Positions 11,359 through 47,191 are shown, numbered from the stretch's first letter. The stretch: DNA of 64,000 nt from an uncultured bacterium (GCA_963789635.1 CAWBLF010000003.1:204364-268363); one strand, 5' to 3'. Numbers and translations are program-made. Notes: generated from the letters alone by a model not told the origin.

Positions 11359-12657
11359 ATGAAATCACTGTTAAAAAATATTGTAATAAAAATTTTGACT
11401 TGGGAATCAAAAGTTGTAATAAAAAAATACAATCCAAAAATTATCGCCATTACCGGCAGTGTCGGCAAAACTTCCACAAAAGATGCCATATTTTGTGTTC
11501 TCGAGCCGTTTTTTTTCGTGCGTAAAAGCGAAAAGAGTTTTAATAGCGAGGTGGGGGTGCCATTGACAATTCTCGGTATCCCAAACGGTTGGAACAATCC
11601 GTTTATCTGGCTAAAAAATATATTTGAAGGGTTGGCTCTTATCATTCTGCCAAATAATTATCCAAAATGGCTGGTAATTGAAATAGGGGCAGATGCCCCT
11701 GGGGACATTCTTAAAATCACGGAGTGGATAAAGCCGGACATAACTGTGGTGACAAGACTTTCCAAAGTCCCTGTGCACGTGGAATTCTTCCCGTCACCTG
11801 AGGACGTCTTCAGAGAGAAGAGTTATTTGGTCAGCGCCTTGAAAAAAGACGGAGTCCTAGTCATTAATTCCGATGATGAAGATGTCTTGGCTTTCAGGTC
11901 GTTGGTTGATAATAAAACTATTTTGTTTGGCGTGGGTAGTTCTGCTGAAGTAGTCGGAAGTAATTTGCATATTGTATACAGCGAGCAAGATGGAAGAAAA
12001 GAGCCCACCGGCGTAGCGTTTGAAGTCGTCTATGGAAAGGACGGAGGGGAAGTGATGATCCGAAACGGGCTTGGAATACAACAAATGTATCCGGCTCTCG
12101 CCGCCGTGGCGGTGGGAGTGGCTTTGTCGATTCCACTCGACAAAATAATTGCTTCGTTTGAGAAACATTCGCCGTCACTGGGAAGAATGCGAATCATAAA
12201 AGGTATCAAAAACAGTATTATCATAGATGATACGTACAACTCTTCGCCTGTCGCTCTGGCTGAAGCGCTCAATACTTTGGTGAGCTTAAAGACAAGCGGG
12301 AGGAAAATAGCGGTACTCGGCGATATGCTAGAGCTTGGAATTTTTTCTGCTGATGAGCATAAAAAGGCTGGGGCAAATGTGACATTTGCCGATTTGTTAT
12401 TTACGGTAGGTATTCGCGCTCGAAGAATTGCAGAAGGTGCTCTCAACGCCGGTATGAGCGAAACAAAAATTTTTCAATATGAATCATCCCGTGAAGCCGG
12501 AAGAGATTTGGAAATTATGATGAAAGAAGGGGACGTCGTCCTCGTAAAGGGTTCGCAGGGGGTGCGAATGGAGAGGGTGGTGGAGGAGGTGATGGCGGAG
12601 CCAGAACACAAATGGAAACTTCTTGTGCGACAGGACAGTGAGTGGGCAAAACGTTGA
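11359..12657 (+). CDS. murF: UDP-MurNAc-tripeptide--D-Ala-D-Ala ligase
   Basis: Mur ligase P-loop GSVGKTSTKD, DDTYNSSP motif, dcw position. Confidence 0.85.
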   Translation: MKSLLKNIVIKILTWESKVVIKKYNPKIIAITGSVGKTSTKDAIFCVLEPFFFVRKSEKSFNSEVGVPLTILGIPNGWNNPFIWLKNIFEGLALIILPNNYPKWLVIEIGADAPGDILKITEWIKPDITVVTRLSKVPVHVEFFPSPEDVFREKSYLVSALKKDGVLVINSDDEDVLAFRSLVDNKTILFGVGSSAEVVGSNLHIVYSEQDGRKEPTGVAFEVVYGKDGGEVMIRNGLGIQQMYPALAAVAVGVALSIPLDKIIASFEKHSPSLGRMRIIKGIKNSIIIDDTYNSSPVALAEALNTLVSLKTSGRKIAVLGDMLELGIFSADEHKKAGANVTFADLLFTVGIRARRIAEGALNAGMSETKIFQYESSREAGRDLEIMMKEGDVVLVKGSQGVRMERVVEEVMAEPEHKWKLLVRQDSEWAKR

Positions 12658-12706: not shown

Positions 12707-12778
12707 GGCCCTATCGTCTAACGGCTAGGACGAAGCCTTCTCAAGGCTTAAATCAGAGTTCGATTCTCTGTAGGGTCA
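12707..12778 (+). tRNA. tRNA-Glu (anticodon CUC)
   Basis: Hand-folded cloverleaf. Acceptor GGCCCTA/TAGGGTC (one G-U). D-stem GTCT/GGAC. Anticodon stem AAGCC/GGCTT with loop TTCTCAA. T-arm CAGAG-TTCGATT-CTCTG. No encoded CCA. Confidence 0.85.
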
Positions 12779-12787
12779 CAACTAGAT

Positions 12788-12816
12788 CTTGCCGAGGCTT
12801 AACCTCGGCAGATTAG
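12788..12816. repeat. palindromic repeat copy 1 (cttgccgagg-cttaa-cctcggcag-attag)
   Basis: Identical 29-mer recurs at 13548-13576. Confidence 0.9.
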
Positions 12817-12825
12817 AAAAATAAT

Positions 12826-13380
12826 ATGAAGGCAAAATTTATTTTACACGGTGGATTTGCTAAAGGAAAAACTGATGAAGATAACAGTGAATTTTATACT
12901 GAAATTTTGAAAGGTGCTCCAGAAAATGCCAAAGTACTTTTGGTTTGTTTTGCTAAGGATGACGATAGGGTGCCAGATGCTATAACTGAGGTTATGTCTG
13001 AATTTAATAAAAATAAATGGCAAAAAGAAATCGCTTTTGAGATCGCAAGCAAAAAATCATTTTTGAAACAAATAAAATTAACCGACGTAATTTATTTTTT
13101 TGGTGGTAGAACTTTTAAATTACTCGAAGCCCTAAAGGATTTTCCTGATTTTCGGAACTTGTTCGATGGAAAAACTGTTGCTGGTGAATCTGCCGGGGCG
13201 AATGTGTGGGCAAAATATTTTTACAGCCCAAATGCCGATAGTGTTGGTGAAGGATTGGGTTTCCTTTCGCTTAAAATTATTCCTCACTATACAGAACAAT
13301 ACAAAGGTAAACTTGATAGCGTTGGAAAGGATTTAGAAGAACTGGATTTGCTCGAATATCAGTATAGAGTTTTTAATTAG
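12826..13380 (+). CDS. peptidase S51 (dipeptidase E-like) family protein
   Basis: 184 aa; IYFFGGRTFKLL and nucleophile-elbow VAGESAGANV resemble PepE/cyanophycinase family. Confidence 0.65.
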   Translation: MKAKFILHGGFAKGKTDEDNSEFYTEILKGAPENAKVLLVCFAKDDDRVPDAITEVMSEFNKNKWQKEIAFEIASKKSFLKQIKLTDVIYFFGGRTFKLLEALKDFPDFRNLFDGKTVAGESAGANVWAKYFYSPNADSVGEGLGFLSLKIIPHYTEQYKGKLDSVGKDLEELDLLEYQYRVFN

Positions 13381-13389
13381 AGACCCTAA

Positions 13390-13418
13390 AATCTGCCGAG
13401 GTTAAGCCTCGGCAGATT
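13390..13418. repeat. palindromic repeat copy 2 (12-bp perfect stem, ttaag loop)
   Basis: aatctgccgagg ttaag cctcggcagatt, 10 nt after the S51 stop. Confidence 0.9.
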
Positions 13419-13420
13419 AA

Positions 13421-13543
13421 GGTGCTTGCCGAGGCTTAACCTTGGCAAGTCATTCTAGTAGAAACCGCCATATGTGTGTGCACATTACCAAAGCCTCTTG
13501 ACATTGTTATTGATAGGGTGTATAATATAGCGAGTTCTTTTTA
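13421..13543 (+). repeat. promoter cassette, copy A (about 120 bp direct repeat)
   Basis: Near-identical to 14171-14290; begins with palindrome copy 3 (13425-13449) and contains a consensus promoter. Confidence 0.9.
13498..13526 (+). promoter_or_regulatory. consensus sigma70-type promoter (TTGACA-17-TATAAT)
   Basis: TTGACA 13498-13503, 17-nt spacer, TATAAT 13521-13526. Confidence 0.7.
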
Positions 13544-13547
13544 TGGG

Positions 13548-13576
13548 CTTGCCGAGGCTTAACCTCGGCAGATTAG
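13548..13576. repeat. palindromic repeat copy 4 (in the 5' leader of ORF 13653)
   Basis: Identical to copy 1. Confidence 0.9.
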
Positions 13577-13652
13577 ACTGGCTATTGACGTTTTGATAAT
13601 GTTTGATATCTTGACCAAGGATTTCTCGTTCTATCTTTAAACCTCTGCCAGG

Positions 13653-14123
13653 ATGGTTGCGATGCCTTCGTTTCTGTATTCAAATATCGATCGAGCGATT
13701 GTCGCGACACAGTATGATCTACGTGGCTTTTGGCACCCTTTGGGATTTCGTATGCCCAAAGAATCGGCAAAAAGCCTGCACGCGACCACGACCAACTTCA
13801 TGAACTTCGCCGCGGGTTGTGCTAAGGAAGACTCCTCTGGGCCGACCGATGAAAACTATGTGCGCTGGCATAAATGCACCCACGAGGAATATCTCGCAAT
13901 GTGCAAGCGGTTGGTCAACGACTGTGATCTGTCCGAGAAGGAGGCAATTCAGCTCATCATCAAGGACATCGCCGAGCAGATGGAAGGTTTGCGGGCGAAG
14001 AAGGAGCGTGGCGAAACGAATTCGGGGTACGTGATGACCATGGACAAGGACAACCGATGGGGCATGGTTATCCTCGCTTTGGCCGAGGCGTTCGAGGTGT
14101 CGCTGGAAACAGTAACGACGTAG
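13653..14123 (+). CDS. GC-rich orphan hypothetical protein A
   Basis: 156-aa ORF (alternative start 13662); codons visibly G/C-ending unlike neighbours; own promoter cassette and terminator. Confidence 0.55.
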   Translation: MVAMPSFLYSNIDRAIVATQYDLRGFWHPLGFRMPKESAKSLHATTTNFMNFAAGCAKEDSSGPTDENYVRWHKCTHEEYLAMCKRLVNDCDLSEKEAIQLIIKDIAEQMEGLRAKKERGETNSGYVMTMDKDNRWGMVILALAEAFEVSLETVTT

Positions 14124-14134
14124 ATTGTAGTAAT

Positions 14135-14170
14135 GCCGGTATCCTATAACAGGATACCGGCAATTTTGTT
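14135..14170 (+). terminator. rho-independent terminator
   Basis: gccggtatcct ataac aggataccggc followed by aattttgtt. Confidence 0.7.
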
Positions 14171-14290
14171 GGTGCTTGCCGAGGATTAACCTCGGCAGGT
14201 CAGTCTAGTAGAAACCGCCATATGTGTGTGCACATTACCAAAGCCTCTTGACATTGTTATTGACAGGGTGTATAATATAGTGAGCTCTTT
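14171..14290 (+). repeat. promoter cassette, copy B
   Basis: Direct repeat of 13421-13543; starts with palindrome copy 5 (14175-14199). Confidence 0.9.
14248..14276 (+). promoter_or_regulatory. consensus sigma70-type promoter (TTGACA-17-TATAAT)
   Basis: TTGACA 14248-14253, TATAAT 14271-14276. Confidence 0.7.
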
Positions 14291-14306
14291 TATAGTTTAC
14301 TTGTAA

Positions 14307-14357
14307 TCGCCACAGCTTTCAGTGTTTCAAAACTTGGAATGTTGAAAGCTGTGGCGA
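14307..14357 (+). promoter_or_regulatory. 15-bp perfect stem-loop in the leader of ORF B
   Basis: tcgccacagctttca (14307-14321) / tgaaagctgtggcga (14343-14357), 21-nt loop, no U-tract. Confidence 0.5.
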
Positions 14358-14427
14358 CAATCCGTTGCCGAGCCCCCACAACCTCGGGCAGAGGGAAGCC
14401 AAGCGCTTTGAGCGCAAGGAGATTTCG

Positions 14428-14991
14428 ATGGCAAAGTACAACGATGTGACCCACGGTCAGACTGAAGCCTGCATCAACCGCATGGGCGGTTGGGACAACT
14501 TCCTCCGCTTCATCGGCGGGTCGGGCAGGATCGTGTTCGACACGATTCTCACCCTCATACGCGAAGTGAGACTCGGCGCGCAACAGGCCGTCACCACTTC
14601 CAAGAAGTTCTGGGAGGATGCTGGCGTGAAGTGGATGGGGGAGAATTTCGAGGCCCAGTTTATTGGCCTAGATGTTCCCGCCACTCCCGCCACGGACCTC
14701 TGCGTTCGTAAGTTGGAGCAGAACTCACTCGACGCTCTCATCATCGCCGAACTCGGCGGTGAAGAGAAAGCCGAGACCAGCATCTCTCACTTCAAGGACT
14801 TCCTTTCGAAGAATCGGAAGTCCACGGAGTGGTTCATCTTTTACCTCAAAGGTAAGGATGGAAACCTCTGGGCAGTGAACGCGCCCTGGGACTCCGGCCG
14901 CGACGGTTGGTATGTCTATGCCTACTCGGTGACGGATCCGCGCAGCTGGGGTGCTGGTCGCCAGGTTGTCTCTAGCAAGTTGACCGTGTGA
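14428..14991 (+). CDS. GC-rich orphan hypothetical protein B
   Basis: 187 aa from the ATG at 14428, preceded by AAGGAG 7 nt upstream (track ORF starts at 14365, inside leader structure); G/C-rich codons; terminator follows. Confidence 0.6.
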   Translation: MAKYNDVTHGQTEACINRMGGWDNFLRFIGGSGRIVFDTILTLIREVRLGAQQAVTTSKKFWEDAGVKWMGENFEAQFIGLDVPATPATDLCVRKLEQNSLDALIIAELGGEEKAETSISHFKDFLSKNRKSTEWFIFYLKGKDGNLWAVNAPWDSGRDGWYVYAYSVTDPRSWGAGRQVVSSKLTV

Positions 14992-15026
14992 ACCTTGGGG
15001 TCTGTCACTTAGACCCTTTGACACTA

Positions 15027-15080
15027 TGACCCTTTGGAATTTCTGCGATTGTCGCATGAGTCCAAAGGGTCATTTCTTTT
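15027..15080 (+). terminator. rho-independent terminator
   Basis: tgaccctttgga ... tccaaagggtca, then tttctttt. Confidence 0.65.
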
Positions 15081-15235
15081 GGAAAAATTTGATATAATTT
15101 TCTTGAAGCAATGTGATACAGAATGGCTAAGGCTTTTCCGTCATAACCTTAAGATATTTTTTGTGAGAGTTATTCTGGGCACGCCTTGAGCAAGGGTGCA
15201 AAAAATAATCTTTAAAAATAAAAACAAAACTTAAG

Positions 15236-15260
15236 TCTGCCGAGGTTAAGCCTCGGCAGA
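15236..15260. repeat. palindromic repeat copy 6
   Basis: tctgccgagg ttaag cctcggcaga. Confidence 0.9.
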
Positions 15261-15295
15261 GATAGGGGTAATGGTTTATCTGATATAATTTCAAT

Positions 15296-16489
15296 ATGAA
15301 CAAGCCCTCGCTCAAAGTCCATCCGGATGTAATCAAACTGGGGTTTGTTTCATTCCTGACTGACGTTTCGTCGGAGGCCATATTTTCTGTCTTCGCGGTA
15401 TTCTTCACGGTCATTGCCGGAGCCTCGGTAGCATTGCTCGGACTGGTGGAGGGAGTGGCCGATTTTTCTGCTTCGTCTTTGGACTATATTTCGGGCTGGC
15501 TGTCCGACAGAAGTGGCAAGCGCAAGATTTTTGCCGTTGTCGGATATGGATTCTCGACTTTGGCTAAGATATTTCTGGTCGTTGCCAACTCGGTGACCGC
15601 TCTGGCACTATTCCGAGTCGTCGAGCGCCTCGGCAAGAGCTTCAGAGGACCACCGCGAGACGCTTGGCTCTCTGATGCGGCCGACCAAGCCAACCGTGGT
15701 TACTCATTTGGTGTTCACAAAGCGATGGACAAAGCCGGCGCCGTGGCCGGGCCACTCCTGGCTTACGCACTTTTGATTTGGCTCGGCCAGACGGAGGGGA
15801 CTTTTCATATATTATTCGTCGGGGCGGCGATAGTCGCGGCTTTGGCCGTCGTCGTCCTCCTTGTCATGAAGGATAGACCGGGAGTGTCGCATAGTCGCGA
15901 GAATATTTTCAAATCATGGACGGTGCTTAGCCCAGGATTCAAGGCATACCTGGTGCCAGCTTGTGTATTCTCCTTGGCGTATTTCAGCTTTGGCTTCTTG
16001 CTCCTCAAGGCTTACGCGGTAGGATTTTCCATTGAAGATGTGGTATTGCTCTATGCTTTGTTTAATCTGGCTTTTGTCCTCGTGTCTGCGCCGATAGGAG
16101 CACTGGGCGATATCATCAGCCGAAAGTATGTCATCATGCTCGGCTACTTCATATACGCTGTCATGTCGGTGGGCTTTATGTTTGCTACTTACAAATGGGA
16201 GATCATCGTTCTTTTTGTTTTGTTTGGTATCTTCTACAGTATCGACGAAGCCCAGACCAAAGCTTTCATCGCGGATATAGAACGCGACAGACGGGGGAGC
16301 GCCATAGGTCTGTACAACTTCCTGACAGGACTTGTCTATCTACCAGCATCGCTAATCGCCGGAGGATTGTGGATGGTGCGACCTGAGTATGCCTTCGGCT
16401 TTGCGGCTGTGCTGGCTATGGTGGCGTTGATTATATTTGTCAGCTTGCGAGGGAAGTATCAGATTCTTATGCAGAAGGAGCCGATGTAA
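15296..16489 (+). CDS. MFS transporter
   Basis: 397 aa, about 12 hydrophobic helices, MFS motif-A-like GWLSDRSGKRKIF; TGaTATAAT box ends 6 nt before the ATG. Confidence 0.8.
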   Translation: MNKPSLKVHPDVIKLGFVSFLTDVSSEAIFSVFAVFFTVIAGASVALLGLVEGVADFSASSLDYISGWLSDRSGKRKIFAVVGYGFSTLAKIFLVVANSVTALALFRVVERLGKSFRGPPRDAWLSDAADQANRGYSFGVHKAMDKAGAVAGPLLAYALLIWLGQTEGTFHILFVGAAIVAALAVVVLLVMKDRPGVSHSRENIFKSWTVLSPGFKAYLVPACVFSLAYFSFGFLLLKAYAVGFSIEDVVLLYALFNLAFVLVSAPIGALGDIISRKYVIMLGYFIYAVMSVGFMFATYKWEIIVLFVLFGIFYSIDEAQTKAFIADIERDRRGSAIGLYNFLTGLVYLPASLIAGGLWMVRPEYAFGFAAVLAMVALIIFVSLRGKYQILMQKEPM

Positions 16490-16490
16490 G

Positions 16491-16515
16491 TCTGCCGAGG
16501 TTAAGCTTCGGCAGA
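16491..16515. repeat. palindromic repeat copy 7
   Basis: tctgccgagg ttaag cttcggcaga (one mismatch), starts 2 nt after the MFS stop. Confidence 0.85.
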
Positions 16516-16524
16516 GATATTGAT

Positions 16525-17010
16525 ATGTTTAAAGGAAAAATTAGGGAATTAAATAATGATGATTTAAACGCCGTTGAGGGGATCCTTGGCATGTATTGGT
16601 TTGGTGAGCTCAAAGATAGATTTTTGAAAAGAATAAAGGATTTTGTAGAGCAAACGCCGGAATCATTGGAACAAAAATATATGTATTTTGTGGCTGAAGA
16701 AAATGGAGAAGTGGTCGGTTTTGCTGGAATGAGAAAGGCACCTGAACACATGAAAAAATATGCAACAACAGATAATCCTGCAGAATTTTATATATCAGCG
16801 GCAAAATATAAAGGAAAGGGTATAGGTATGGCACTACGGTCTGCCAGAATCGAAGAAGCAAAGAAACTTGGATTTACAGAAGCGATATTTTTTAGTCCTG
16901 AAAGTCACAAAGATTCTTAGCCTTTTCATGACAGCGGTGGTTTCAAGAGAGTTGGTTCCGCCACTGCGCCCAATGGCGAAGCTGGCCAAATCTGGAGGAT
17001 TGTTTTTTGA
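16525..17010 (+). pseudogene. GNAT N-acetyltransferase interrupted by an in-frame TAG
   Basis: Acetyl-CoA motif VVGFAGM...YKGKGIGMAL. TAG at 16918-16920. The same frame continues PFHDSGGFKRVGSATAPNGEAGQIWRIVF to the TGA at 17008-17010, which looks like the normal GNAT C-terminus. Confidence 0.6.
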
Positions 17011-17018
17011 GTAGTAAG

Positions 17019-17043
17019 TCTGCCGAGGTTAAGCTTCGGGAGG
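17019..17043. repeat. palindromic repeat copy 8 (degenerate)
   Basis: tctgccgagg ttaag cttcgggag. Confidence 0.7.
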
Positions 17044-17141
17044 GGGGATTAATTTTTTATAGGAGATTTACATTTATGATATTTCTGATATTCTCCATTT
17101 AGAATAAAAGTTCAATATTGCCTAAGTATGGAGGTACAGTA

Positions 17142-17609
17142 ATGAACGAACACTGGACAGAAACGGAAGTGGAGGCCCTAAAAACCGCTGACACTTTTGA
17201 AGAAGTGGCAGAAATAGCGATTACGATACTTTCTCGTATGAGCAAAGCTGGACTAGAAATAGTGCAGATATGCGGGCCAATGTCTACCGGTGGTCTGGGT
17301 AATCTAGCGGACAATATGGCTCGTTTTCAGCTGGCGATTGAAAGAGCATTTGCAAACGGGCTTTTGGTTTTTGACCAGCTCCCGTTTCAAGAAGTAATCA
17401 TCCGTCTCAGTGGATTTCAAGAAGGACGCAGTAATTACAACTGGGATATTCTCGAGATTTTTTATAAGAGAATTTTTGAGTCCGGATATGTGCGTCGAAC
17501 TCTCTTCATTCCTGGCTGGGGTGGATCAACTGGGGCAAGTTGGGAACGCCAAATGGTGACGAAACTTGGGCTTATAGTGGAAGAATACCCAATAGAGTGG
17601 CTCAAATGA
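17142..17609 (+). CDS. hypothetical protein, possibly nucleoside deoxyribosyltransferase-like fold (DUF4406-like)
   Basis: Start chosen at the ATG preceded by GGAGG (track start 17118); ICGPMSTGG resembles the AGPMxG motif of that fold; function call weak. Confidence 0.4.
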   Translation: MNEHWTETEVEALKTADTFEEVAEIAITILSRMSKAGLEIVQICGPMSTGGLGNLADNMARFQLAIERAFANGLLVFDQLPFQEVIIRLSGFQEGRSNYNWDILEIFYKRIFESGYVRRTLFIPGWGGSTGASWERQMVTKLGLIVEEYPIEWLK

Positions 17610-17638
17610 CCCAGACAATTGTCCGGGTCATTGTTTTT
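17607..17638 (+). terminator. rho-independent terminator
   Basis: tgacccagac aatt gtccgggtca (9/10 bp), then ttgttttt. Confidence 0.65.
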
Positions 17639-17684
17639 ACCTTGAAAAATAGTACTTGTAGTGGTTTAATGTTGTGAATAAATC

Positions 17685-18032
17685 ATGAACAGAATTGATG
17701 AATTAACAAAAAGGATAATTGCTTTTAGGGACGCAAGAGATTGGAAACAGTTTCACACTCCCAAAGATGTAGCGCTGTCTCTTGTGCTCGAGGCAACTGA
17801 AGTCATGGAACATTTCCAGTGGAAAAATAAAGAGGAGATGGAGAAATATGTTGTCAAAGCTAGAGCAGAAATAGGTGAGGAGTTAGCCGACGTCCTATAC
17901 TGGGTGCTCCTTATGAGTCACGATCTCAATATTGATGTACTTGATGCACTGGATAAGAAAATGAAAAAGAATGAAGCTAAATATCCGGTCGAAAAAGCAA
18001 AAGGTAAGCATACTAAATACAATAAACTTTAA
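17685..18032 (+). CDS. MazG-like nucleoside triphosphate pyrophosphohydrolase (dCTPase-like)
   Basis: 115 aa all-alpha; RDWKQFHTPK...LEATEV.EHFQW...EELADVLYW motifs typical of small MazG/DCTPP1-like enzymes. Confidence 0.75.
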   Translation: MNRIDELTKRIIAFRDARDWKQFHTPKDVALSLVLEATEVMEHFQWKNKEEMEKYVVKARAEIGEELADVLYWVLLMSHDLNIDVLDALDKKMKKNEAKYPVEKAKGKHTKYNKL

Positions 18033-18034
18033 TT

Positions 18035-20359
18035 ATGAGACTTTATTCAGGATCTTCGACTCAGTTTTTGGATGATACTATCCATAACGAAATTGGTGAC
18101 AAACTTAAAGAGTCTTTTTTCCAATATTTTCGTTACCATCCTTCTCCCAACGAAGTACAATCTTGGAGAAATTCACTCAGAGCAGTATCACAAGTGTTTG
18201 AATATTCCAAACTTGATGACCACGGAGTTATTCTTGAATATCAACTTCCACAAACATCCAAACGTCTCGATTGCATGATAATGGGTAAAGACTTACATGG
18301 AAGTGACCGAGCAGTTATAATTGAGTTAAAGCAATGGGAAAAGTGTGAAGCTTCTGATGGAGAAAATGAAGTTTCAACATGGGTTGGTGGCGGAAAGAGA
18401 GAAGTACTACATCCATCTGTTCAGGTTGGACAATATAAAATGTATTTACAGGATTTACATCCTGCATTTGATGGTGGTAATGCTATTAAACTTGATGCAG
18501 TTTCGTATCTACACAACTACTCTCCTATAAAGAACGATGAATTACTTTCCTCAAAATTTACTGAAAAAATTAAAAATAATCCAATTTTTTGTGCGGATGG
18601 AGTGGACACTTTTAGTGAGTATCTTACGGCCAAGCTTTCAGCTGGTGGAGGGTTACCTATACTTGAGCGTGTTGAAAAAACAGAATATAAGGTGAGCAAG
18701 AAGCTCATGGATCACGTCAGTAAAACGATTAAGGAAAGAAGCGAATATGTACTAATTGACGAGCAACTTGTTGTATATGACAAGGTCATCTCCCTTGTTA
18801 AAAATCAACTTGGTAGCAAAAAGAAGTCAGTTGTAATAATTAGCGGTGGTCCAGGAACAGGGAAGTCAGTAATTGCAATCAATCTCATGGCAGATTTGTT
18901 GAGGTTGGGGTATGACACAAATTATGCTACTGGATCTAAGGCTTTTACAGAAACTCTAAGAAAAAAAATTGGTACACGTGGGGCCGTCCAGTTTAAGTAT
19001 TTTAATAGTTATATGAATTCTAGCAAAGACATTTTGGATGTCCTTATTGCTGACGAAGCACATCGCATTAGAGAGACTAGTAATAATAGGTTTACAAGAA
19101 AAGAAATGCGCTCAGACACCCCGCAAATTGAAGAACTAATAAAGGCGTCAAAAATCGGTGTATTTTTTATTGATGATAATCAAAATGTTCGTCCAAACGA
19201 AACAGGATCAGCAGAGTTTATAAAAGATACGGCAATAAAGATGGGTTGTGATGTTCACGAGTATGAGCTTGAGGCTCAGTTTAGATGCAGTGGTTCTGAC
19301 GCATTTGTAAACTGGGTAAACAATACATTGGGAATAAAACGCACAGCAAATGTCATTTGGGATCAAAAAGAAGAGTTTGACTTTCAAATTGTAGATTCCC
19401 CTCTAGAGCTATATTCAAAAATAAAACAAAAAAGTGATGAAAAAGCAGGTTCAGCCAGACTTGTAGCAGGTTTTTGCTGGCCATGGAGTAATCCAAATTC
19501 AGATGGAACATTAGTAAATGACGTTAAAATTGGTGACTTTCAAATGCCCTGGGAAGGTAAGGACGGGCACAAACTTGCTCCGGGAATACCCCCAGCTTCA
19601 CTATGGCCAAATGATCCAAACGGAGTCAACCAAATAGGTAGTATTTATACGATTCAAGGATTTGAATTTGATTATGTCGGGGTCATTATCGGCCCTGATC
19701 TTGTTTATAATTTTGACAATCAAACATGGATTGCATTAAGAGAAAAATCTGCTGACGGTGTTGTAAAACGTTCTGGAGAAAAACTTGAAGAACTTCTTAA
19801 AAATACATATAGAGTGCTTTTGACTCGAGGAATGAAGGGATGCTATGTATATTTTGTAGATAAAGAAACAGAGAAGTTTTTTAAAAGTAGAATTGAGGGA
19901 ACAAAATCAATGCCAACAATGGTAACTAAGAAGATACCTTCTCCTTTCACAATAGAAATGATTAGAGTTCCTTTGGTCGGATCTGCTCCATGTGGTAATC
20001 CACTTCTTGGCGAAGAGAATATTGAGGAATATATCGAAGTGGAAAAAAATAAAATAAAACCAGGTGCAAAGTATTTCATAGTTAGAGCAAGCGGAGATTC
20101 AATGAATAAGGCGGGAATTAATGATAATGATTTAGTTTTATGTCGTTATTCTGAAAAGGGTGAGACTGGTGATAAGGTGGTTGCTCTTCTTGGTGGTGAA
20201 AATGTAACGATAAAATATTATGACAAAAAGGACGGACGTAGGATTTTGTTACCAAAAAGTACTAATCCTATACATCAACCAATCATTCCAGAAGAAGGAG
20301 ATGTATTACAAGGTATTGTTCAAGAAGTTATAGTTAATCCAGGAGCAGATAATTTATGA
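18035..20359 (+). CDS. DUF2075-type nuclease/P-loop ATPase fused to a C-terminal LexA/UmuD-like S24 peptidase domain
   Basis: N-terminus ILEYQLPQTSKRLDCMIMG...AVIIELKQW (PD-(D/E)xK-like, typical DUF2075 start). Walker A GGPGTGKS, Walker B LIADEAHR, GCYVYFVD tail. C-terminus VPLVGSAPCGNP...RASGDSMNKAGI...VTIKYY. Confidence 0.75.
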   Translation: MRLYSGSSTQFLDDTIHNEIGDKLKESFFQYFRYHPSPNEVQSWRNSLRAVSQVFEYSKLDDHGVILEYQLPQTSKRLDCMIMGKDLHGSDRAVIIELKQWEKCEASDGENEVSTWVGGGKREVLHPSVQVGQYKMYLQDLHPAFDGGNAIKLDAVSYLHNYSPIKNDELLSSKFTEKIKNNPIFCADGVDTFSEYLTAKLSAGGGLPILERVEKTEYKVSKKLMDHVSKTIKERSEYVLIDEQLVVYDKVISLVKNQLGSKKKSVVIISGGPGTGKSVIAINLMADLLRLGYDTNYATGSKAFTETLRKKIGTRGAVQFKYFNSYMNSSKDILDVLIADEAHRIRETSNNRFTRKEMRSDTPQIEELIKASKIGVFFIDDNQNVRPNETGSAEFIKDTAIKMGCDVHEYELEAQFRCSGSDAFVNWVNNTLGIKRTANVIWDQKEEFDFQIVDSPLELYSKIKQKSDEKAGSARLVAGFCWPWSNPNSDGTLVNDVKIGDFQMPWEGKDGHKLAPGIPPASLWPNDPNGVNQIGSIYTIQGFEFDYVGVIIGPDLVYNFDNQTWIALREKSADGVVKRSGEKLEELLKNTYRVLLTRGMKGCYVYFVDKETEKFFKSRIEGTKSMPTMVTKKIPSPFTIEMIRVPLVGSAPCGNPLLGEENIEEYIEVEKNKIKPGAKYFIVRASGDSMNKAGINDNDLVLCRYSEKGETGDKVVALLGGENVTIKYYDKKDGRRILLPKSTNPIHQPIIPEEGDVLQGIVQEVIVNPGADNL

Positions 20360-21057
20360 AAAAAATTCAGGATGACATATTAAGTTATCGGGAAATGTGT
20401 GATGCAGAAAATTCTCAGACAATGCAAAGAGGAATGAATTTTAGAATGAATCCAAATTACTCAGTTATATTAATGTCACAAAGACCAAATGCGCCGTATA
20501 AAGATACAATATATTCAGACGGAATAACAATTGAATATGAGGGACATGATAATACAAGAAGTGGTTTGAACCACGATTCTTCTTTTGACGATCAGTCTTC
20601 GAGATTACCATCCGGAAAATTAACTCAAAATGGGATGTTTATTAATTCAATTGTTGATCATAAAACAAAGAAACTAAAACCTGAATTAGTTAAAGTATAT
20701 GAAAAAATATTACCAGGTACGTGGTCTTTAAAAGGATATTTTGATTTGATTGATTATAAGAAAGTAAATGATGGAAAAAGAAATGTATATAGATTTATTC
20801 TTAAATTATCAGACCGAAAAGAAAATGTAGTAAATTTAAATCAACTCAATATAGAGCATACGAGATTGATACCATCTGAAGTTAAAAGAGAGGTCTGGAA
20901 AAGGGATGGCGGTAAATGTGTTATATGTGGTGATTCAAAAAATCTTCACTTTGATCATGATTTGCCCTTTTCTAAAGGGGGTACGAGTTTGTCTTCTAAA
21001 AATGTACGTTTATTGTGTATGAAACATAATTTACAAAAGTCGGATAAAATTGAATAA
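20356..21057 (+). CDS. HNH endonuclease with SRA/YDG-like N-terminal domain (candidate modification-dependent nuclease)
   Basis: ATGA overlap with the upstream gene. C-terminus CVICGDSKNLHFDHDLPFSKGG...NVRLLCMKHNLQKSDK (McrA-type HNH). N-terminus GMNFR..YSVILMSQ...IEYEGHD...WSLKGYFDLIDYKKVNDGKRNVYRFILKL resembles the SRA pattern. Confidence 0.6.
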   Translation: MKKIQDDILSYREMCDAENSQTMQRGMNFRMNPNYSVILMSQRPNAPYKDTIYSDGITIEYEGHDNTRSGLNHDSSFDDQSSRLPSGKLTQNGMFINSIVDHKTKKLKPELVKVYEKILPGTWSLKGYFDLIDYKKVNDGKRNVYRFILKLSDRKENVVNLNQLNIEHTRLIPSEVKREVWKRDGGKCVICGDSKNLHFDHDLPFSKGGTSLSSKNVRLLCMKHNLQKSDKIE

Positions 21058-21065
21058 TTAAATTT

Positions 21066-21530
21066 ATGAGCATAGATTTTTCAAGAAAATTAATAAAAGG
21101 AAAAATTACAGAGGTTATATTTGAACAAATGATTCGTGAAGAGGGTAAGTACACAGTAATTCCTTTTGGTTATGAGCATACGGTTCCCACCCTGTCACAA
21201 TTTCAGCATTTGGCAGTAGTGAGGCAAATTATGAACAATATTTCTGATGCCCCAGATTTTGCATTAATTTCAGAAGATAAAACAAAGGTTTATCTAGTAG
21301 AGGTAAAATTTCAAAATAAACTCAATATTGAAAAGTTAGAAGAATATGCAACTAAATTACAAGATAGATGGGAATACCCGTGGCTTTTTGTTGCAACACC
21401 AGAAAGATTTTATAACGGATTGTGCAGAGATATTATTAAAGAGAAACGAATTCCTAATTTAACGGAAAATTGGGTTGCTAAAGAACTACAAGATCAATAT
21501 TTAAAATTACTTAATGAATTTGAGAAATAG
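21066..21530 (+). CDS. small PD-(D/E)xK-like (restriction-endonuclease fold) protein
   Basis: 154 aa; E..FE helix, PDFALI, YLVEVKF = D...(D/E)xK arrangement; 8 nt after the HNH gene. Confidence 0.45.
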   Translation: MSIDFSRKLIKGKITEVIFEQMIREEGKYTVIPFGYEHTVPTLSQFQHLAVVRQIMNNISDAPDFALISEDKTKVYLVEVKFQNKLNIEKLEEYATKLQDRWEYPWLFVATPERFYNGLCRDIIKEKRIPNLTENWVAKELQDQYLKLLNEFEK

Positions 21531-21565
21531 AATGAATCAACCCATGATCTAACTAACGAAATATA

Positions 21566-21700
21566 ATGGACGACGAAATATTTGAAAAAGCAAAAGAAGA
21601 GGACTTGAGCCAAGATGAAGCACAGGAATTTCAGGACTTTGTGGATGAAACAGGTTTTGATGTTGATAATGCATACGAGCTTTGGGAAGAGTCACAGTGA
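21566..21700 (+). CDS. 44-aa highly acidic small protein (not in ORF track)
   Basis: MDDEIFEKAKEEDLSQDEAQEFQDFVDETGFDVDNAYELWEESQ; directly followed by a terminator. Confidence 0.35.
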   Translation: MDDEIFEKAKEEDLSQDEAQEFQDFVDETGFDVDNAYELWEESQ

Positions 21701-21710
21701 GCTTACCGAG

Positions 21711-21744
21711 CCCTCCCTTCGGTATTGAGGAGGGAGGGGTTTTT
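21711..21744 (+). terminator. rho-independent terminator (shared with the convergent minus-strand gene)
   Basis: ccctccct ... agggaggg followed by gttttt. Confidence 0.75.
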
Positions 21745-22222
21745 AATAAAGACCAACGGAACGTCGTCTTTCTTTCAAATGTTTGATGTCTTTTGTTGGT
21801 AAAAGTGTACGTTTTTTGTTTTTTACTCTATATTGGGTCCCGTATATTTGGGTCTTACCTTCATGAATCAAAATCCGATCTTGCAAGTATGCAATATTTT
21901 TGACCGACGCATCACCCTTTGGGATTTTTTTCATCATGTTTAGGCACTTCCTTTGAAATCTGACATCGAAATCAGCGTGTTGAACAAGTAGCCAAGCGTT
22001 GTTTGAACCTTTTTTGCCAACTTTAGATATAGTCGGCCAACCGATCTTAGCGATTATTGTTTTCGTTATTTTTGTGTTGGCACGATCTACTGATTGGTCA
22101 AATAGATTCCAGTCTTTCACAGCTTTCTTGCGCATTTTTTGGTCAATCTTGACCATATCATTAATTTTCTTGGCAATCTTAGGATAGAGGATTTTTCTTT
22201 TGTTTAATTTTTTTCTTGGCAT
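21743..22222 (-). CDS. hypothetical protein (only convincing minus-strand gene in the window)
   Basis: 159-aa basic protein, motif NAWLLVQHADFD; no function assigned. Confidence 0.6.
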   Translation of the reverse strand: MPRKKLNKRKILYPKIAKKINDMVKIDQKMRKKAVKDWNLFDQSVDRANTKITKTIIAKIGWPTISKVGKKGSNNAWLLVQHADFDVRFQRKCLNMMKKIPKGDASVKNIAYLQDRILIHEGKTQIYGTQYRVKNKKRTLLPTKDIKHLKERRRSVGLY

Positions 22223-22498
22223 TTAGATCAGATTATATTATTACAGAGAAATATGAATACATTGGGTTCATACAAATATAATCAATATAAATAGTTAAAA
22301 CAAGCATAATTAAGGCCCTCACACCGTTGGATGTGAGGGCCATTGTCAGGCTATTTCTCTGGCAAGCAGTGCATCAATTATCGCGTTGGTTGCACCCTTA
22401 CCGAGTCCTCCCCTCAGTAAATTGAAGTGGTACTCACATATTCTACTAAGGTAAAAATGCAGATGATGCTATAATAAAACTGAAACATTGTAATACTT

Positions 22499-25637: not shown

Positions 25638-25656
25638 GTTGAAGATTAAAAATAAT

Positions 25657-25690
25657 TTGCCGCATGAGCGAGTCTCATGCGGCAAATTTT
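25657..25690 (+). terminator. rho-independent terminator
   Basis: ttgccgcatgag cgagt ctcatgcggcaa, then atttt. Confidence 0.75.
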
Positions 25691-26936: not shown

Positions 26937-27935
26937 ATGTCGCTATCCATCGGTATTGTCGGGCTTCCAAATGTGGGCAAATCAACGCTGTTCAACGCGC
27001 TGACCAAAAAATCCGTGCCTGCGGAAAATTATCCTTTTTGCACCATTGATCCATCTGTCGGTATCGTGCCGGTGCCAGACCCGAGATTGGATAAATTATC
27101 CAAATTTAGCAATTCGGCCAAAACTATTCCCGCAGTGGTGGAATTTGTGGACATTGCCGGTCTGGTGAAGGGCGCTTCGGAAGGAGAAGGTCTTGGCAAT
27201 AAATTTCTTTCCAATATCCGCGAAGTGGATGCCATAGCCGAAATGGTGAGAGTGTTTGAAGACCCAGACATCATTCATGTTGCAGGAAAAATTGACCCAT
27301 TGTTTGATATTGAAATAATTAATTTTGAATTAATTGCGGCAGATTTGCAGACTGTGACCAAGCGACTTGATACATTGGGCAAAGATGTAAAGGCTGGAAA
27401 CAAAGATGCGATTGGTCAACACTCGGTGTTGACCAAGGTTAAACCAATACTTGAAGCGGGCAAGCTTGCGTCAGGCGCTATGCTCAGTGAAGAAGAGACT
27501 CTTGTTCTGAAAGGTCTTCATCTTCTGACTACTAAGCCGTTTCTATATGTGCTAAACACTTCTGAAGCGGGAGAGAAAGCGCTTAATGATTTTACAAAGA
27601 TTCCCGGCGCGTATGTAGAAGTGGACCCAATTTTCGGTACTGGCATGGATAATTTGATTACCGAAAGTTACAAGCTTCTCAATTTGATGACATACTTTAC
27701 TACCGGTGAAGATGAGACAAGGGCGTGGACAATACCAGTCGGTTCAACAGCACCAGAGGCCGGAACCGCTATTCACACGGATTTCAAAGATAAATTTATT
27801 CGGGCTGAGGTCATTGAGTGGGACAAGCTTCTTGAAGCAGGTTCTTATGGGAAAGCGCGAGAGAAAGGCTGGGTGCGAACAGAAGGCAAAGATTATATTG
27901 TGAAGGATGGTGATGTCGTAGAGTTCAAAATCTAG
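26937..27935 (+). CDS. ychF: ribosome-binding ATPase YchF
   Basis: GIVGLPNVGKSTLFNALT, NYPFCTIDP, DIAGLVKGAS, C-terminal TGS-like GKDYIVKDGDVVEFKI. Confidence 0.9.
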   Translation: MSLSIGIVGLPNVGKSTLFNALTKKSVPAENYPFCTIDPSVGIVPVPDPRLDKLSKFSNSAKTIPAVVEFVDIAGLVKGASEGEGLGNKFLSNIREVDAIAEMVRVFEDPDIIHVAGKIDPLFDIEIINFELIAADLQTVTKRLDTLGKDVKAGNKDAIGQHSVLTKVKPILEAGKLASGAMLSEEETLVLKGLHLLTTKPFLYVLNTSEAGEKALNDFTKIPGAYVEVDPIFGTGMDNLITESYKLLNLMTYFTTGEDETRAWTIPVGSTAPEAGTAIHTDFKDKFIRAEVIEWDKLLEAGSYGKAREKGWVRTEGKDYIVKDGDVVEFKI

Positions 27936-28084
27936 CAAGATTTTGAACCGAGATCCTGAGCTTGTGAAGGGTGGTTAGAGTTCAAAATCTAGCAAGATTT
28001 TGAACCGAGATCCTGAGCGTAACGTAGTATGACGGAGTTTAAGATTTAAACGAATTCGACCATCCTGAGCGTAGCGTAGTATAT
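27898..28084 (+). repeat. tandem repeats duplicating the 3' end of ychF and its hairpin
   Basis: Unit 1 at 27898-27961, unit 2 at 27962-28018 (57 nt, near-identical), degenerate unit 3 at 28019-28070, then a partial unit. Units 1 and 2 contain gttcaaaatc/gattttgaac; unit 3 keeps only a degenerate remnant. Confidence 0.85.
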
Positions 28085-28652: not shown

Positions 28653-28751
28653 AAAATCATTCAGAAAAATAATCCAAGGCGTAACCTTAAGCAAAAAGCA
28701 CGCATCTAGTCTATGTGTGTTTTTTCTTGTATGATTGAAAATAATCAGCCC

Positions 28752-31142
28752 ATGAAATCATACGATCCAGCAAAAATTGAAAAAAAATGGCAAAAAAAGT
28801 GGGAAAAAGAAAAGCTTTTTCACGCTGATAACAATTCAACTAAGCCCAAATACTATTCACTCATAGAGTTTCCATATCCGTCGGGTGACGGTCTGCACGT
28901 AGGTCACCCAAGGCCGTATATCGGCATGGATGTCATTTCACGTAAACGTCGGGCTGAGGGTTTTAATGTTTTGTATCCTATCGGCTGGGACGCCTTTGGA
29001 CTCCCTACTGAAAACTATGCCATCAAGACAGGTAAAGATCCTCGGGAGGTAACCAAAGAAAATACAGATACTTTTCGTAAACAAATCCAATCATTGGGTA
29101 TTTCGTTTGACTGGTCGCGGGAGATAAATACTACCGATCCGGAATATTATCGCTGGACCCAGTGGATGTTTTTGCAATTTTTGAAGGAAGGTTTGGCATA
29201 CAAAGCCAAGATACCTATCAACTGGTGTCCCAAAGACAAGATTGGCCTTGCCAACGAAGAGGTTGTAAACGGACGTTGCGAGCGATGCGGTACTCCAGTG
29301 GAAAAACGTGAAAAGGAGCAATGGATGATGGCTATTACCAAGTACGCCGACAGGCTGGATAAAGATCTTGATATGGTAGACTTTTTGCCACAAATTAAAC
29401 AACAGCAAAGAAATTGGATAGGGAAGAGCGATGGGGCAGAAATAAATTTTCAATTTTTGAACAACACCGACGGACGTCCGACGTCCGTCACGGTATTTAC
29501 CACCAGACCCGATACTATTTTTGGCGCCACTTTTGTCGCGGTATCTCCGGAGTTGGCAAAAACGTGGCTTGATAACGGCTGGTCGGCGGGTGACGAAATA
29601 AAAAAATATGTCAAAGAGACTGTCGATGAAAGACTCAAAGGGGGTTTTGAGGAAAAAGAGAAAAATGGAATAGCTACGGGATTTGGCGCTATCAATCCAG
29701 CCACAAAGGAGGAAATACCTGTTTGGATAGTCAATTACGTGCTCGGCGATGTAGGCACTGGTGCCATTATAGCTGTGCCTGCTCACGATGAACGTGATTT
29801 TGAATTTGCAAAGAAATATAATCTTCCGATTAAATATGTCGTAGCGCCATATTTCTTGGACAGCACAGAAAACAGTAAACCAAGGAGTGATGCTGAAACA
29901 AAAGATAGAACAATTGGTGTAGGAATTGTAAAACATTGGTCAGAAGATAAGTATTTGATGCTTAACTGGAAAAACGGTTGGACTGGATTTATTACTGGAG
30001 GGGTAGAATCCGGTGAGGATTTAGAGAAATCCATTATTCGTGAAATTCAAGAAGAAACTGGTTATACGAATGTTCGTTTTGTGCGCCACTTAGGTGGTCC
30101 GAATGTATCCGATTTTTATGCACCGCACAAAAAATTTAATCAGCATGTTTTCGGTTATGGGATGTACTTGGAGCTTGTTGATGACAAGCAAGAAATAGTG
30201 GCTGACGAAGAACACGCGAAGCATGAGGTTATTTGGGTTGAAAAAAAAGAAGTCCTTCCTTTTCTCAAGAAGGGTTCTCCTATGGGAGATTCACGATATT
30301 CAGAAATGTTTTGGGATAGATTCCAAACTGGTAATTTTGTTTGGACAGGAGATGGTACATTGCTGAATTCAGAGAAATTTGATGGAAAAACTTCTGAAGA
30401 GGCAAAAAAGGAAATTACATACTTTGTCGGAGGAAAAATGGTTACTCGATACAAACTTCGAGACTGGGTTTTTTCTCGACAGCGATATTGGGGTGAGCCG
30501 ATACCGGTCATACATTGTGAGAAATGCGGTATTGTGCCAGTTCCGGAAAAGGATTTGCCTGTAGAACTGCCAAAGGTTAAAAAATATGAGCCCACAGATA
30601 CTGGTGAGTCACCACTAGCCGCCATTGATAAATGGGTAAATGTGAAATGTCCAAAGTGTGGTGGCAATGCGAAACGTGAGACAGATACGATGCCACAATG
30701 GGCAGGTTCCTCCTGGTATTTTCTTCGTTATGCTGACCCAGAAAATAAGAAGGAATTTGCAAGTAAAGAAGCACTCAAATATTGGACACCGGTTGACTGG
30801 TATAACGGAGGGATGGAGCATACCACCCTTCACCTTTTGTATTCACGTTTTTGGAATAAATTTTTGTTTGACCAGGGATTGGTGCCGACATCAGAGCCTT
30901 ACAAAAAAAGAACCTCACACGGATTCATTCTTGGTGAAGGTGGAGAAAAAATGTCTAAATCTCGTGGCAACGTCATCAACCCCGATGATGTGGTGAAGCT
31001 ATATGGCGCCGATACTCTTCGAGTTTACGAAATGTTTATGGGTCCGTTTGAGCAGGCTATCGCGTGGTCAACCGAAAGTATTATCGGATCACGAAGGTTT
31101 TTGGAGAGGGTTTGGAAATTGCGACGAGCGAATAACAAATGA
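28752..31142 (+). CDS. leuS: leucyl-tRNA synthetase, main part (catalytic + CP1 editing + inserted Nudix domain)
   Basis: HVGHPRPY (HIGH), [12 protein letters not shown] and [13 protein letters not shown] (CP1), KMSKSRGN. Likely start is [13 protein letters not shown] at 28752. Ends at a TGA overlapping the next ATG. Confidence 0.9.
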
Positions 31143-31639
31143 CGACTTCGGCAGTATCAAAAGAGGAAAAAACAAAACTGGAATATCTTTTGAATCAGAC
31201 GATTCAAAAGGTGAGTGAAGACATTGAGTCGATGAGATTTAATACAGCTATATCCACCTTGATGATATTTGTAAATGAGTGTGATCGTCACGCCCTTATC
31301 CCATATTCCGTATTTGTCGGCTTTTTGAAAGTGTTAGCGCCATTTGCGCCCCATATTGCCGATGAACTATGGAGCGAGCTTGGTAATTCTGACACGATTC
31401 ATATGGCCGGCTGGCCAAAAGTAGATGCGGGAAAACTGACCTCTGGTACGACGACTATAGCCGTACAAATAAATGGCAAGACTCGGGCGGTCATGAACAC
31501 TCAAAGGGAAAGGGATGAGGCCACTATTATAGCTGAGGCAAAAGGTTTGGATGCAGTTAAAAAATGGATTGACGGCAAAAATATCGTAAAGACGATTTAT
31601 ATACCGGATCGTATCCTTAATATTGTTGTCGGTGAATAA
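31139..31639 (+). CDS. leuS: leucyl-tRNA synthetase, C-terminal anticodon-binding part (separate ORF or frameshift)
   Basis: [40 protein letters not shown] match the LeuRS C-terminus; frame -1 relative to the upstream part, ATGA junction. Confidence 0.85.
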
Positions 31640-46226: not shown

Positions 46227-47191
46227 ATGTCAGACCATTCAATCATTTTGCCATCTAAACCAAAAATTGTTTCAGAGGACAAATTTGTTGGTAGTTATGA
46301 GATAGACGGATTGTATCCGGGATACGGACACACTCTGGGTAATTCGCTTCGCAGAATTATTTTGTCTTCACTTCCCGGGGCAGCCATAACTTCCGTAAAA
46401 ATTGCCGGAGTGGAACATGAGATTTTCTACGATTGCCGGAGTAAAAGAAGATGTCATCACTTTACTTTTGAATTTGAAAAAGATTCGTATCAAGATGCTC
46501 ACAGACGAACCTCAAACTCTGACAATCCACGCAAAAGGTATTGGTGAAGTAACTGCTGGCAATATAGAAGCTGTGGGGCAGATTGAAATTCTCAATCCGG
46601 ATTTGGTTATTGCCCATATCACGGAAAAAAGCACCGATCTTTCAATAGAAATGGTGGTGGAGCGGGGTATGGGATATGTTTCTCGCGCAAGTTTTACAAA
46701 AGAATCGCGTCGATGTGGGAGTTATTTCTTTGGACGCTATTTTTACTCCGATTCGACGCGTCAGTTATGAAGTTGAAAATATGCGTGTGGGTGATCGTAC
46801 CGATTTCAACCGTTTGAAAATATTTATTGAAACCGATGGCACTATAACAGCAAAGGAAGCATTGGAATCTTCGATTGAAATTATGATCAACCAGCTCAAG
46901 GCTATTGTCGGCTTCAAAGAACCTTCGGAAATTGTTGAATCTGCTGATACGAACAAATCGGAAAACAGTTCATCGAAAGCAGAAATTGATTCTGAAGTAT
47001 TAAAGACAAGGATTGAATCGATAAATCTATCGGCCAGAACGGTCAATGCTTTGATAGGTGGCAATATTCGAACAGTCGGAGGCCTTGCTCGCAAAAAGGA
47101 AAGAGACCTTCTTGATATAGATGGTCTGGGGGCAAAAGGTATTCAGGAAATTCGCACTGTTCTTGCCGGATTGGGTATTACTTTGAGATAA
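46227..47191 (+). pseudogene. rpoA: RNA polymerase alpha subunit, split over three frames (two +1 shifts)
   Basis: Frame 1 gives ...[25 protein letters not shown]. Frame 2 gives [19 protein letters not shown]...ERGMGYVSRA. Frame 3 gives VGVISLDAIFTPIRRVSYEVENMRVG...CTD. Confidence 0.85.

Follow-up and report, generated by a model that had tools for sequence, protein, structure and literature searches.

Short palindromes at the gene junctions of a Patescibacteria island: a candidate family of REP elements

Introduction

What kind of element are the short palindromes that recur between the genes of a 4.3-kb stretch (12788-17043) of a Patescibacteria chromosome? The stretch is part of a 64,000-nucleotide segment (GCA_963789635.1 CAWBLF010000003.1:204364-268363; hereafter the window, with positions counted from its first letter) that belongs to a Parcubacteria/Zambryskibacteria-like lineage of ultra-small bacteria. 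A preliminary description had listed eight copies in the stretch and a diverged one at 35072-35095, and offered several explanations: REP (repetitive extragenic palindromic) elements, RNA hairpins, protein-binding sites or recombination sites bordering gene cassettes. Here we report that the copies are members of one hairpin family, that those of the stretch lie outside genes and cluster at the junctions of a patchwork island, and that the same family brackets a gene resembling those for REP-associated tyrosine transposases (RAYTs) in a different Patescibacteria lineage. By analogy with the latter locus, we propose that the palindromes are a new, lineage-specific and RAYT-associated REP family, with a probability of roughly 0.55.

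REP/RAYT systems have been characterized chiefly in Proteobacteria. Clusters of REPs near RAYT genes are known. In enterobacteria, duplications are known to have REPs at their join-points, and insertion sequences to target them. Patescibacteria otherwise have few known mobile elements, and in the literature searched we found no paper linking REP/RAYT systems to Patescibacteria or the candidate phyla radiation (CPR). The defining REP/RAYT arrangement is a RAYT gene bracketed by inverted REP copies, with each RAYT having its own REP type (PMC3337134, PMC3733652). REPs are typically located downstream of open reading frames (ORFs), with units in opposite orientation, and GTAG and CGTC tags mark the two large REP super-families (PMC3733652).

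Results

The palindromes are one sequence family

The family has a 19-nucleotide core, GCCGAGG-TTAAG-CCTCGGC. With up to three mismatches allowed, GCCGAGGTTAAGCCTCGGC is present at nine sites in the window, compared with 0.01 expected from dinucleotide shuffles. Four sites show the TTAAG loop on the + strand (A type, with cores starting at 13395, 15239, 16494 and 17022) and five the CTTAA loop (B type, 12791, 13428, 13551, 14178 and 35074). Every copy listed in the preliminary description, including the diverged one, is among them; the 20-nucleotide pattern that it had proposed for searches, GCCGAGGNTTAANCCTCGGC, contains one base too many and matches no site. The copies measure 25-33 bp and form near-perfect hairpins with a 5-nt loop. 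Those of the stretch follow each other in the order B A B B B A A A, four in each orientation, and are referred to here as B1 to A8. B1 (12788) and B4 (13548), already reported as identical, share the same sequence over 30 nt, and A2 (13390) is the perfect reverse complement of both over 25 nt.

A covariance model made from the nine copies, run on the window with filters off, found no tenth copy. The model gives no score to 14363-14392, which had been taken for a degenerate relative; it is an imperfect hairpin and not a member of the family, located in a conserved 5’ leader, which also precedes the homologues of the gene orf187 (see below) in L031 and L032, two loci without palindromes. The top non-family match of the model (14.8 bits) is a perfect 15-bp palindrome at 25654-25688, AATTTGCCGCATGAG-cgagt-CTCATGCGGCAAATT, the outer arms of which (TTGCCG/CGGCAA) are similar to those of the B type.

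Pairing is kept in the stem variants: 92% of the cells in the nine-copy alignment are paired, and three pairs have changes on both sides. The outer arms covary between TCTG/CAGA and CTTG/CAAG, and copies with hybrid arms (TCTGCC...GGCAAG) exist next to both pure types. Two stem changes give G.U pairs on the + strand, and wherever a stem has changed on one side only, the result is a G.U pair on the transcribed strand. The predicted RNA hairpins of the single copies in the island have energies of -18 to -27 kcal/mol (z -4 to -6), except for one of the six, the mismatched A8, whose predicted fold is less stable (-13.7 kcal/mol, z -1.8). The inverted doublet A2-B3 reaches a z of -8. The near-identity of the copies extends into the unpaired flanks, and hence concerns the sequence and not the structure alone. 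The dyad symmetry creates conserved half-sites of 12-14 nt. No copy is followed by a T-tract on the + strand, in agreement with the earlier view that these are not classical terminators; the sole T-rich tail is found at 15236, on the - strand.

The same family flanks a RAYT-like gene

At locus L001 of the Patescibacteria metagenome-assembled genome H32-bin006_1, the covariance model recognizes two copies that are inverted relative to each other (31.1 and 26.4 bits). They flank an ORF of 235 amino acids, with the B-oriented copy 33 nt upstream of the ATG and the A-oriented copy at the 3’ end. The encoded protein matches the Pfam family Y1_Tnp (IS200-like transposase) with 36.2 bits, above the gathering cut-off of 23, and its sole NCBIfam match is NF047646, REP-associated tyrosine transposase (E 1.9e-10). 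It contains an HUH motif (NHFHIL) and a tyrosine motif (YIHLNP). Because the repeats in the window match those flanking this REP-type transposase gene, we consider a REP family the most likely explanation, rather than a new kind of system, and the REP-like option of the preliminary description has gained direct support. Within the island, the order B1, S51 peptidase gene, A2 mimics the order B, RAYT, A of L001.

For exact matches to the 19-mer, the scans covered 185,579 species genomes as well as 241 million metagenome records; for its 18-mer variant GCCGAGGTTAAGCYTCGG, they covered 2.9 million viral contigs. They yielded 5 genome, 11 metagenome and 5 viral single matches. All except L001 are unrelated, and nearly all are ordinary terminators with a T-tract (the majority) or coding sequence; with a T-tract behind it, this core hairpin acts as a terminator in other bacteria and in phages. 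None of the 21 other exact-core loci (18-mer pattern for the five viral ones) has a second comparable copy, and the arrangement in L001 is therefore not a by-product of the search route. Neither does any of them encode a Y1 protein.

A distant relative of the transposase, on the IMG/VR viral contig L037, was fetched deliberately. This Y1 transposase is 26% identical, and the palindromes on either side of it form a family of their own, different from that of the window; this fits the rule of one REP type per RAYT (PMC3337134). Three palindrome copies with the core CGATGA...TCATCG are located at 2794-2952 and 3561-3593 of L037, which makes gene and palindromes a candidate REP/RAYT pair. In L001, the RAYT-like gene with its flanks spans 1115-1883, and a diverged pair of sequences, CAAGGTTTAACCTTG / GCAAGGTTAAACCTTGC, is found behind the adjacent ksgA gene (2733-2795).

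Extragenic placement of the copies

The palindromes occupy the first part of an island that adjoins the tRNA-Glu(CTC) gene (12707-12779, + strand). In L017, a relative with 91% identical MurF, the alignment with the window runs up to 12779, the last base of the tRNA, and resumes at 22429 after 50 bp; 12780-22428 (9.65 kb) is thus a strain-specific island, with the 3’ end of the tRNA gene as its left border. Eight of the nine copies fall within 12788-17043, which contains 20% of the intergenic bases of the window (P about 2e-5), and all eight are extragenic.

B1 (12788-12816, - strand; CTTGCCGAGG-CTTAA-CCTCGGCAG; model score 49.9 bits) is located 9 nt past the tRNA gene and 10 nt ahead of the ATG of the S51-family peptidase gene. 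A2 (13390-13418, + strand), with a perfect 12-bp stem and the loop TTAAG, lies 9 nt past the stop codon of that gene. Together with B3 (13425-13449, - strand; arms CTTGCC...GGCAAG, one G.T pair on the + strand) it makes up an inverted doublet (13390-13449), the two units being 6 nt apart; the remaining seven copies are singlets. B3 opens a 121-nt promoter repeat, and B4 (13548-13576, - strand), in the 5’ leader of orf156, begins 6 nt past the right end of this duplicated segment. B5 (14175-14199, - strand; loop ATTAA) comes after the classical terminator of orf156 and opens the second promoter repeat. A6 (15236-15260, + strand) is in the leader of a major facilitator superfamily (MFS) transporter gene. 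A7 (16491-16515, + strand; G.U variant GCTTCGG) is found 1 nt past the MFS stop codon and 9 nt ahead of the start of a GNAT acetyltransferase gene, and A8 (17019-17043, + strand), with the same GCTTCGG variant and one stem mismatch, 8 nt past the TGA that closes the GNAT frame. Three copies are therefore located 1-9 nt past stop codons. The preliminary description had placed the TTAAG copies behind the S51, MFS and GNAT stops, which is correct for A2 and A7, holds for A8 only with readthrough of an in-frame TAG at 16918, and does not apply to the copy at 15236 in the MFS leader. Outside the island, the dispersed copy (35072-35095, - strand; GCCAAGG-CTTAA-CCTTGGC; 40.6 bits), which has a compensatory double change, has yceG on one side and the conserved part of mnmA on the other, and possibly falls inside the first 14 mnmA codons.

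The very stable predicted hairpins and the position of three copies directly behind stop codons and of two in 5’ leaders could point to elements that work in RNA only, as stem-loops that stabilize or insulate transcript ends, or that pause or terminate transcription without a U-tract, and that spread by local duplication and gene conversion only. The restriction of single-sided stem changes to G.U on the transcribed strand and the use of the same core with a T-tract as a terminator elsewhere are compatible with such a role, and a promoter duplication in the island (described below) shows that local duplication happens. However, B3 and B5 are probably barely transcribed, because they lie upstream of promoters, B5 also behind a bona fide T-tract terminator. 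Moreover, both island genes with their own promoters end in classical T-tract terminators, the near-identity of the copies continues into the unpaired flanks, and in L001 a transposase gene has copies of the family on both sides. We consider it rather improbable that the palindromes function in RNA only.

Each of two consensus promoters has a copy about 50 nt ahead of its -35 box, and the dyad symmetry of the palindromes, with conserved half-sites of 12-14 nt, would suit operators to which a dimeric regulator binds to control the genes of the island jointly. Yet most copies lie behind genes or inside leaders, away from promoters, there is no associated regulator gene, and the compensatory stem changes favor pairing over base-specific contacts; the RAYT association in L001 also points elsewhere. 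A role as operators is very unlikely, and both this explanation and the one confined to RNA account for fewer observations than a REP family does.

Palindromes at the seams of a patchwork

The palindrome array coincides with a compositional patchwork (segments of 34-57% GC) of five modules on the + strand, and every module junction has a palindrome within 0-24 nt. The S51-family peptidase gene (12826-13380; 34% GC) is bounded by the inverted pair B1/A2. It is followed by orf156 (13653-14123; 53% GC; function unknown), which has its own promoter and a T-tract terminator (14134-14170), and by orf187 (14428-14991; 57% GC), which encodes the orphan variable protein of a diversity-generating retroelement (DGR). 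The MFS transporter gene (15296-16489; 51% GC) is bounded by the direct copies A6/A7, and the GNAT gene (16525-17010; 36% GC), with the in-frame TAG at 16918, by A7/A8.

Four breakpoints near palindromes could be mapped. Two of them are the ends of the promoter duplication. Copy a (13421-13541, + strand) consists of a B-type palindrome and a perfect TTGACA-17-TATAAT promoter before orf156, and copy b (14171-14291, + strand), which is 94% identical, is the promoter native to the orf187 family, as judged from the homology to L031. The perfect 12/12 sigma-70 consensus promoters at 13498-13526 and 14248-14276 each have one of the higher-GC genes of unknown function, orf156 and orf187 (the DGR target), behind them. 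The duplicate 13421-13541 starts 2 nt past A2 and ends 6 nt before B4.

The third breakpoint is the truncation of the DGR. In L032 and L033, the orf187 homologue is followed by the template repeat (TR) and then by a reverse transcriptase (RVT_1) gene, and 16 out of 16 mismatches between variable repeat (VR) and TR are at template adenines. In contrast, orf187 of the window has neither template repeat nor reverse transcriptase, and the homology to the intact DGR loci extends to about 15212, which leaves 24 nt to the palindrome at 15236 (DGR coordinates: window 14428-15235; L032 8433-8930; L031 8001-9000). The retention of about 220 nt of DGR spacer explains a sub-threshold match to RT-9 at 15116-15229 (33.7 bits, gathering cut-off 46.1), which apart from the tRNA is the only Rfam match in the window. 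The fourth breakpoint is the left border of the MFS module: the MFS gene is homologous to its closest relative (84% identical, in L028) from 12-17 nt past the 15236 palindrome onwards. The cluster representative of the MFS protein, P0243, is an unrelated 39-residue fragment and was rejected as a clustering artefact.

These seams raise the possibility that the palindromes are cores of site-specific recombination sites, similar to attC or pdif, at which single-gene cassettes were inserted serially beside the tRNA gene by a recombinase encoded elsewhere, leaving one copy of the site per junction. The array begins 9 nt past the tRNA gene in a strain-specific island, each gene-sized segment has a separate GC content, the mapped breakpoints are 2-24 nt from a palindrome, and the clustering is significant. 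Single genes are located between direct repeats (MFS between A6/A7, GNAT between A7/A8), B1 and B4 enclose the S51 gene plus a promoter, and hybrid-arm copies exist next to both pure types. The 11-7-11 geometry is also compatible with a tyrosine-recombinase core site. However, Pfam searches of about 60 of the 71 called ORFs revealed no recombinase in island or window, and no hidden one was detected among the unknown ORFs of the island with Pfam, PHROGs, PADLOC, NCBIfam, PDB and HUH motifs. The orientation of the copies is mixed, neither uniform as in attC arrays nor alternating as in pdif modules, and a near-perfect hairpin of 25-33 bp is neither a 55-141-bp attC nor an 11-6-11 site with distinct arms (PMC13141974). 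No palindromes are present at the loci of the closest homologues of the MFS protein (84% and 76%) and of orf187 (68-72%), and the exact-match scans of public data show no pool of cassettes with the site. In the parental copy of the promoter repeat, no palindrome marks the right breakpoint of the duplication, and an independent assembly (L030) passes A6-A8 without variants. We consider cassette insertion unlikely. The cassette idea of the preliminary description has thus held up as far as the palindromes are found at all junctions of a mosaic, strain-specific island, but mixed orientation, the lack of a nearby recombinase, palindrome-free MFS and orf187 homologues and the missing attC and pdif features speak against it.

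The island and its surroundings

Nearly every gene in the window is on the + strand. Cell-wall and division genes, including MurF (11359-12657), precede the tRNA gene. More distant relatives (L018, L024 and L026) have quite different content at this site, and the MurF/tRNA-Glu site is therefore a hotspot. In its variable region, L024 (MurF 73% identical) contains an unrelated three-copy palindrome family, ACTTGGAAAC-NNN-GTTTCCAAGT (11400-11426, 12774-12814 and 15472-15508), which is likewise present in L025; the outer stems differ and stay self-complementary. A separate palindrome family in L024 is as expected for species-specific REP families. A mini-palindrome in L017, CTTGTTAGGCAAG, directly after the tRNA gene, might be a decayed copy of the family in the window. 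Elsewhere, at the 3’ end of ychF (27919-28018), a 43-nt segment with the palindrome GTTCAAAATCTAGCAAGATTTTGAAC is present twice, 57 nt apart, and the homology to L017 is broken across this interval. No repeat of the tRNA 3’ end (att duplication) was found at the right border of the island, and plasmid and phage databases gave no match to the palindrome or the region.

An assembly artefact can be rejected, since L030, an independent Logan assembly (run ERR12035936), is 100% identical across 14234-18032, which includes three copies (A6-A8); the structure is real and not visibly heterogeneous in that sample. Beyond this point the sequences differ. After the MazG-like gene, L030 (3803-5605) has a divergent allele of the helicase/S24 gene of the window (18033-20359), with only 192 nt at 84% identity, and the comparison indicates a putative strain-level replacement of a defense-like gene.

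The palindrome-free half of the island (17685-21530) resembles a small defense island. The genes at 17.1-22.4 kb encode a MazG-like pyrophosphatase, an HNH nuclease, a restriction-enzyme-like ORF and other defense-like proteins, among them an SLFN-group-3 (Schlafen-type) helicase fused to a LexA-like S24 peptidase domain; PADLOC matches are PDC-S41, AbiO and Nhi. In the window, the genes for LeuRS, AspRS and probably RpoA appear split (28713-31639, 61190-62496 and 46227-47191, respectively). These split essential genes and the TAG in the GNAT gene reflect either indel or base errors in the assembly or gene decay.

Discussion

A REP-type model for the palindromes

Following the REP/RAYT paradigm, we hypothesize that each copy folds into a hairpin in single-stranded DNA, and that a cognate single-copy Y1/HUH transposase (RAYT), related to IS200 and encoded elsewhere in the genome, recognizes the hairpin and copies it in trans. 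Copies would then accumulate at tolerated extragenic sites, in dispensable DNA, singly or as inverted doublets; the A2-B3 doublet resembles a REPIN (REP doublet forming hairpins). On the + strand, the copies would be transcribed as very stable stem-loops (-18 to -25 kcal/mol) behind stop codons or in 5’ leaders, where they may protect mRNA ends instead of terminating transcription. The identical 25-30-bp repeats could also serve as joints for the recombination of unrelated gene modules, as a result of which every module boundary in the 4.3-kb patchwork would carry one.

Several observations weigh against a REP family. Only one locus, from a different lineage, links the family to a RAYT, and the NF047646 score of the L001 protein (40.8) is below the equivalog cut-off of 80. 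In the window, no Y1 or RAYT homologue was detected by tblastn (E<=10) or with Pfam in about 60 of the 71 called ORFs. The exact-match scans of genomes, metagenomes and viral contigs revealed no family member beyond L001, and the syntenic loci of relatives have no copies. The clustering within 4.3 kb is unusual for REPs, which are typically dispersed over the genome in high copy number, and the other 5.3 kb of the island have zero palindromes. Only one inverted doublet is present among the nine copies. Finally, neither a GTAG nor a CGTC tag was found in the orientation-normalized alignment, in which TAA or TGA precedes the stem; this excludes the two REP super-families with these tags, and not REPs as a class.

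We also speculate that REP pairs may bound single genes, as in L001 (B1-S51-A2, B5-orf187-A6, A6-MFS-A7 and A7-GNAT-A8), and that whole ‘cargo REPIN’ cassettes of this kind could be excised and inserted, as single-stranded circles, by a trans-acting, RAYT-like HUH enzyme. There is only a slim chance that this extension of the model applies, but if true, cargo REPINs would be a hairpin-based gene-cassette system that builds mosaic islands at a tRNA-linked hotspot of Patescibacteria.

A REP family with a recognizable RAYT-like partner would place such elements in ultra-reduced genomes, with copies at the joints of a patchwork island. The palindromes give a handle on the shuffling of accessory genes at the MurF/tRNA-Glu hotspot, and the covariance model and the partner protein can now be used for genome-wide surveys.

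Comparison with known systems

With intrinsic (Rho-independent) terminators the palindromes share a GC-rich stem-loop directly behind stop codons, and their core recurs with a T-tract elsewhere. Unlike terminators, they are not followed by a T-tract on the transcribed strand, several copies are located in 5’ leaders or upstream of promoters, and the copies have a sequence in common and not only a shape.

Integron attC arrays, including clusters of attC sites lacking integron-integrases (CALINs), contain co-oriented, single and compositionally unrelated genes, each followed by a hairpin repeat, and the loop region GTTAAGC of the window family fits the GTTRRRY core. attC sites are 55-141 bp long and co-oriented, with R’’-L’’/L’-R’ boxes and extrahelical bases, whereas the window repeat has less than half the minimum attC length and neither such boxes nor extrahelical bases. 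In addition, no IntI integrase (Phage_integrase) was found among the window ORFs tested, there is no attI site or Pc promoter, the orientation is mixed, and two modules have their own promoters and terminators.

The pdif modules of Acinetobacter plasmids (PMC13141974) are likewise small, bounded by short dyad-symmetric sites in inverted and direct pairs, and without a recombinase inside. However, pdif sites are 28 bp long, with distinct XerC and XerD arms, a 6-bp spacer and strictly alternating orientation (PMC13141974), whereas the window sites have symmetric arms and an odd center (5 or 7 nt), do not alternate, and are located on a chromosome next to a tRNA gene. A module bounded by the same sites was not found elsewhere, the closest loci being those of the MFS and orf187 homologues.

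The REP/REPIN-RAYT systems of E. coli and Pseudomonas (PMC3337134, PMC3733652) differ from the window family in several respects. The window family has no GTAG/CGTC tag and no RAYT in the window, its host is a Patescibacterium with a reduced genome, its copies are packed in a 4.3-kb island, as judged within 64 kb of a contig of at least 269 kb, and the L001 protein of 235 residues remains under the NCBIfam RAYT equivalog cut-off. In common with these systems, the palindromes are short, extragenic, lineage-specific and multi-copy, mostly located just 3’ of ORFs, with pairing kept in the variants. One pair of copies forms an inverted doublet, and in L001, a different Patescibacteria genome, a RAYT-like Y1/HUH gene is flanked by inverted copies.

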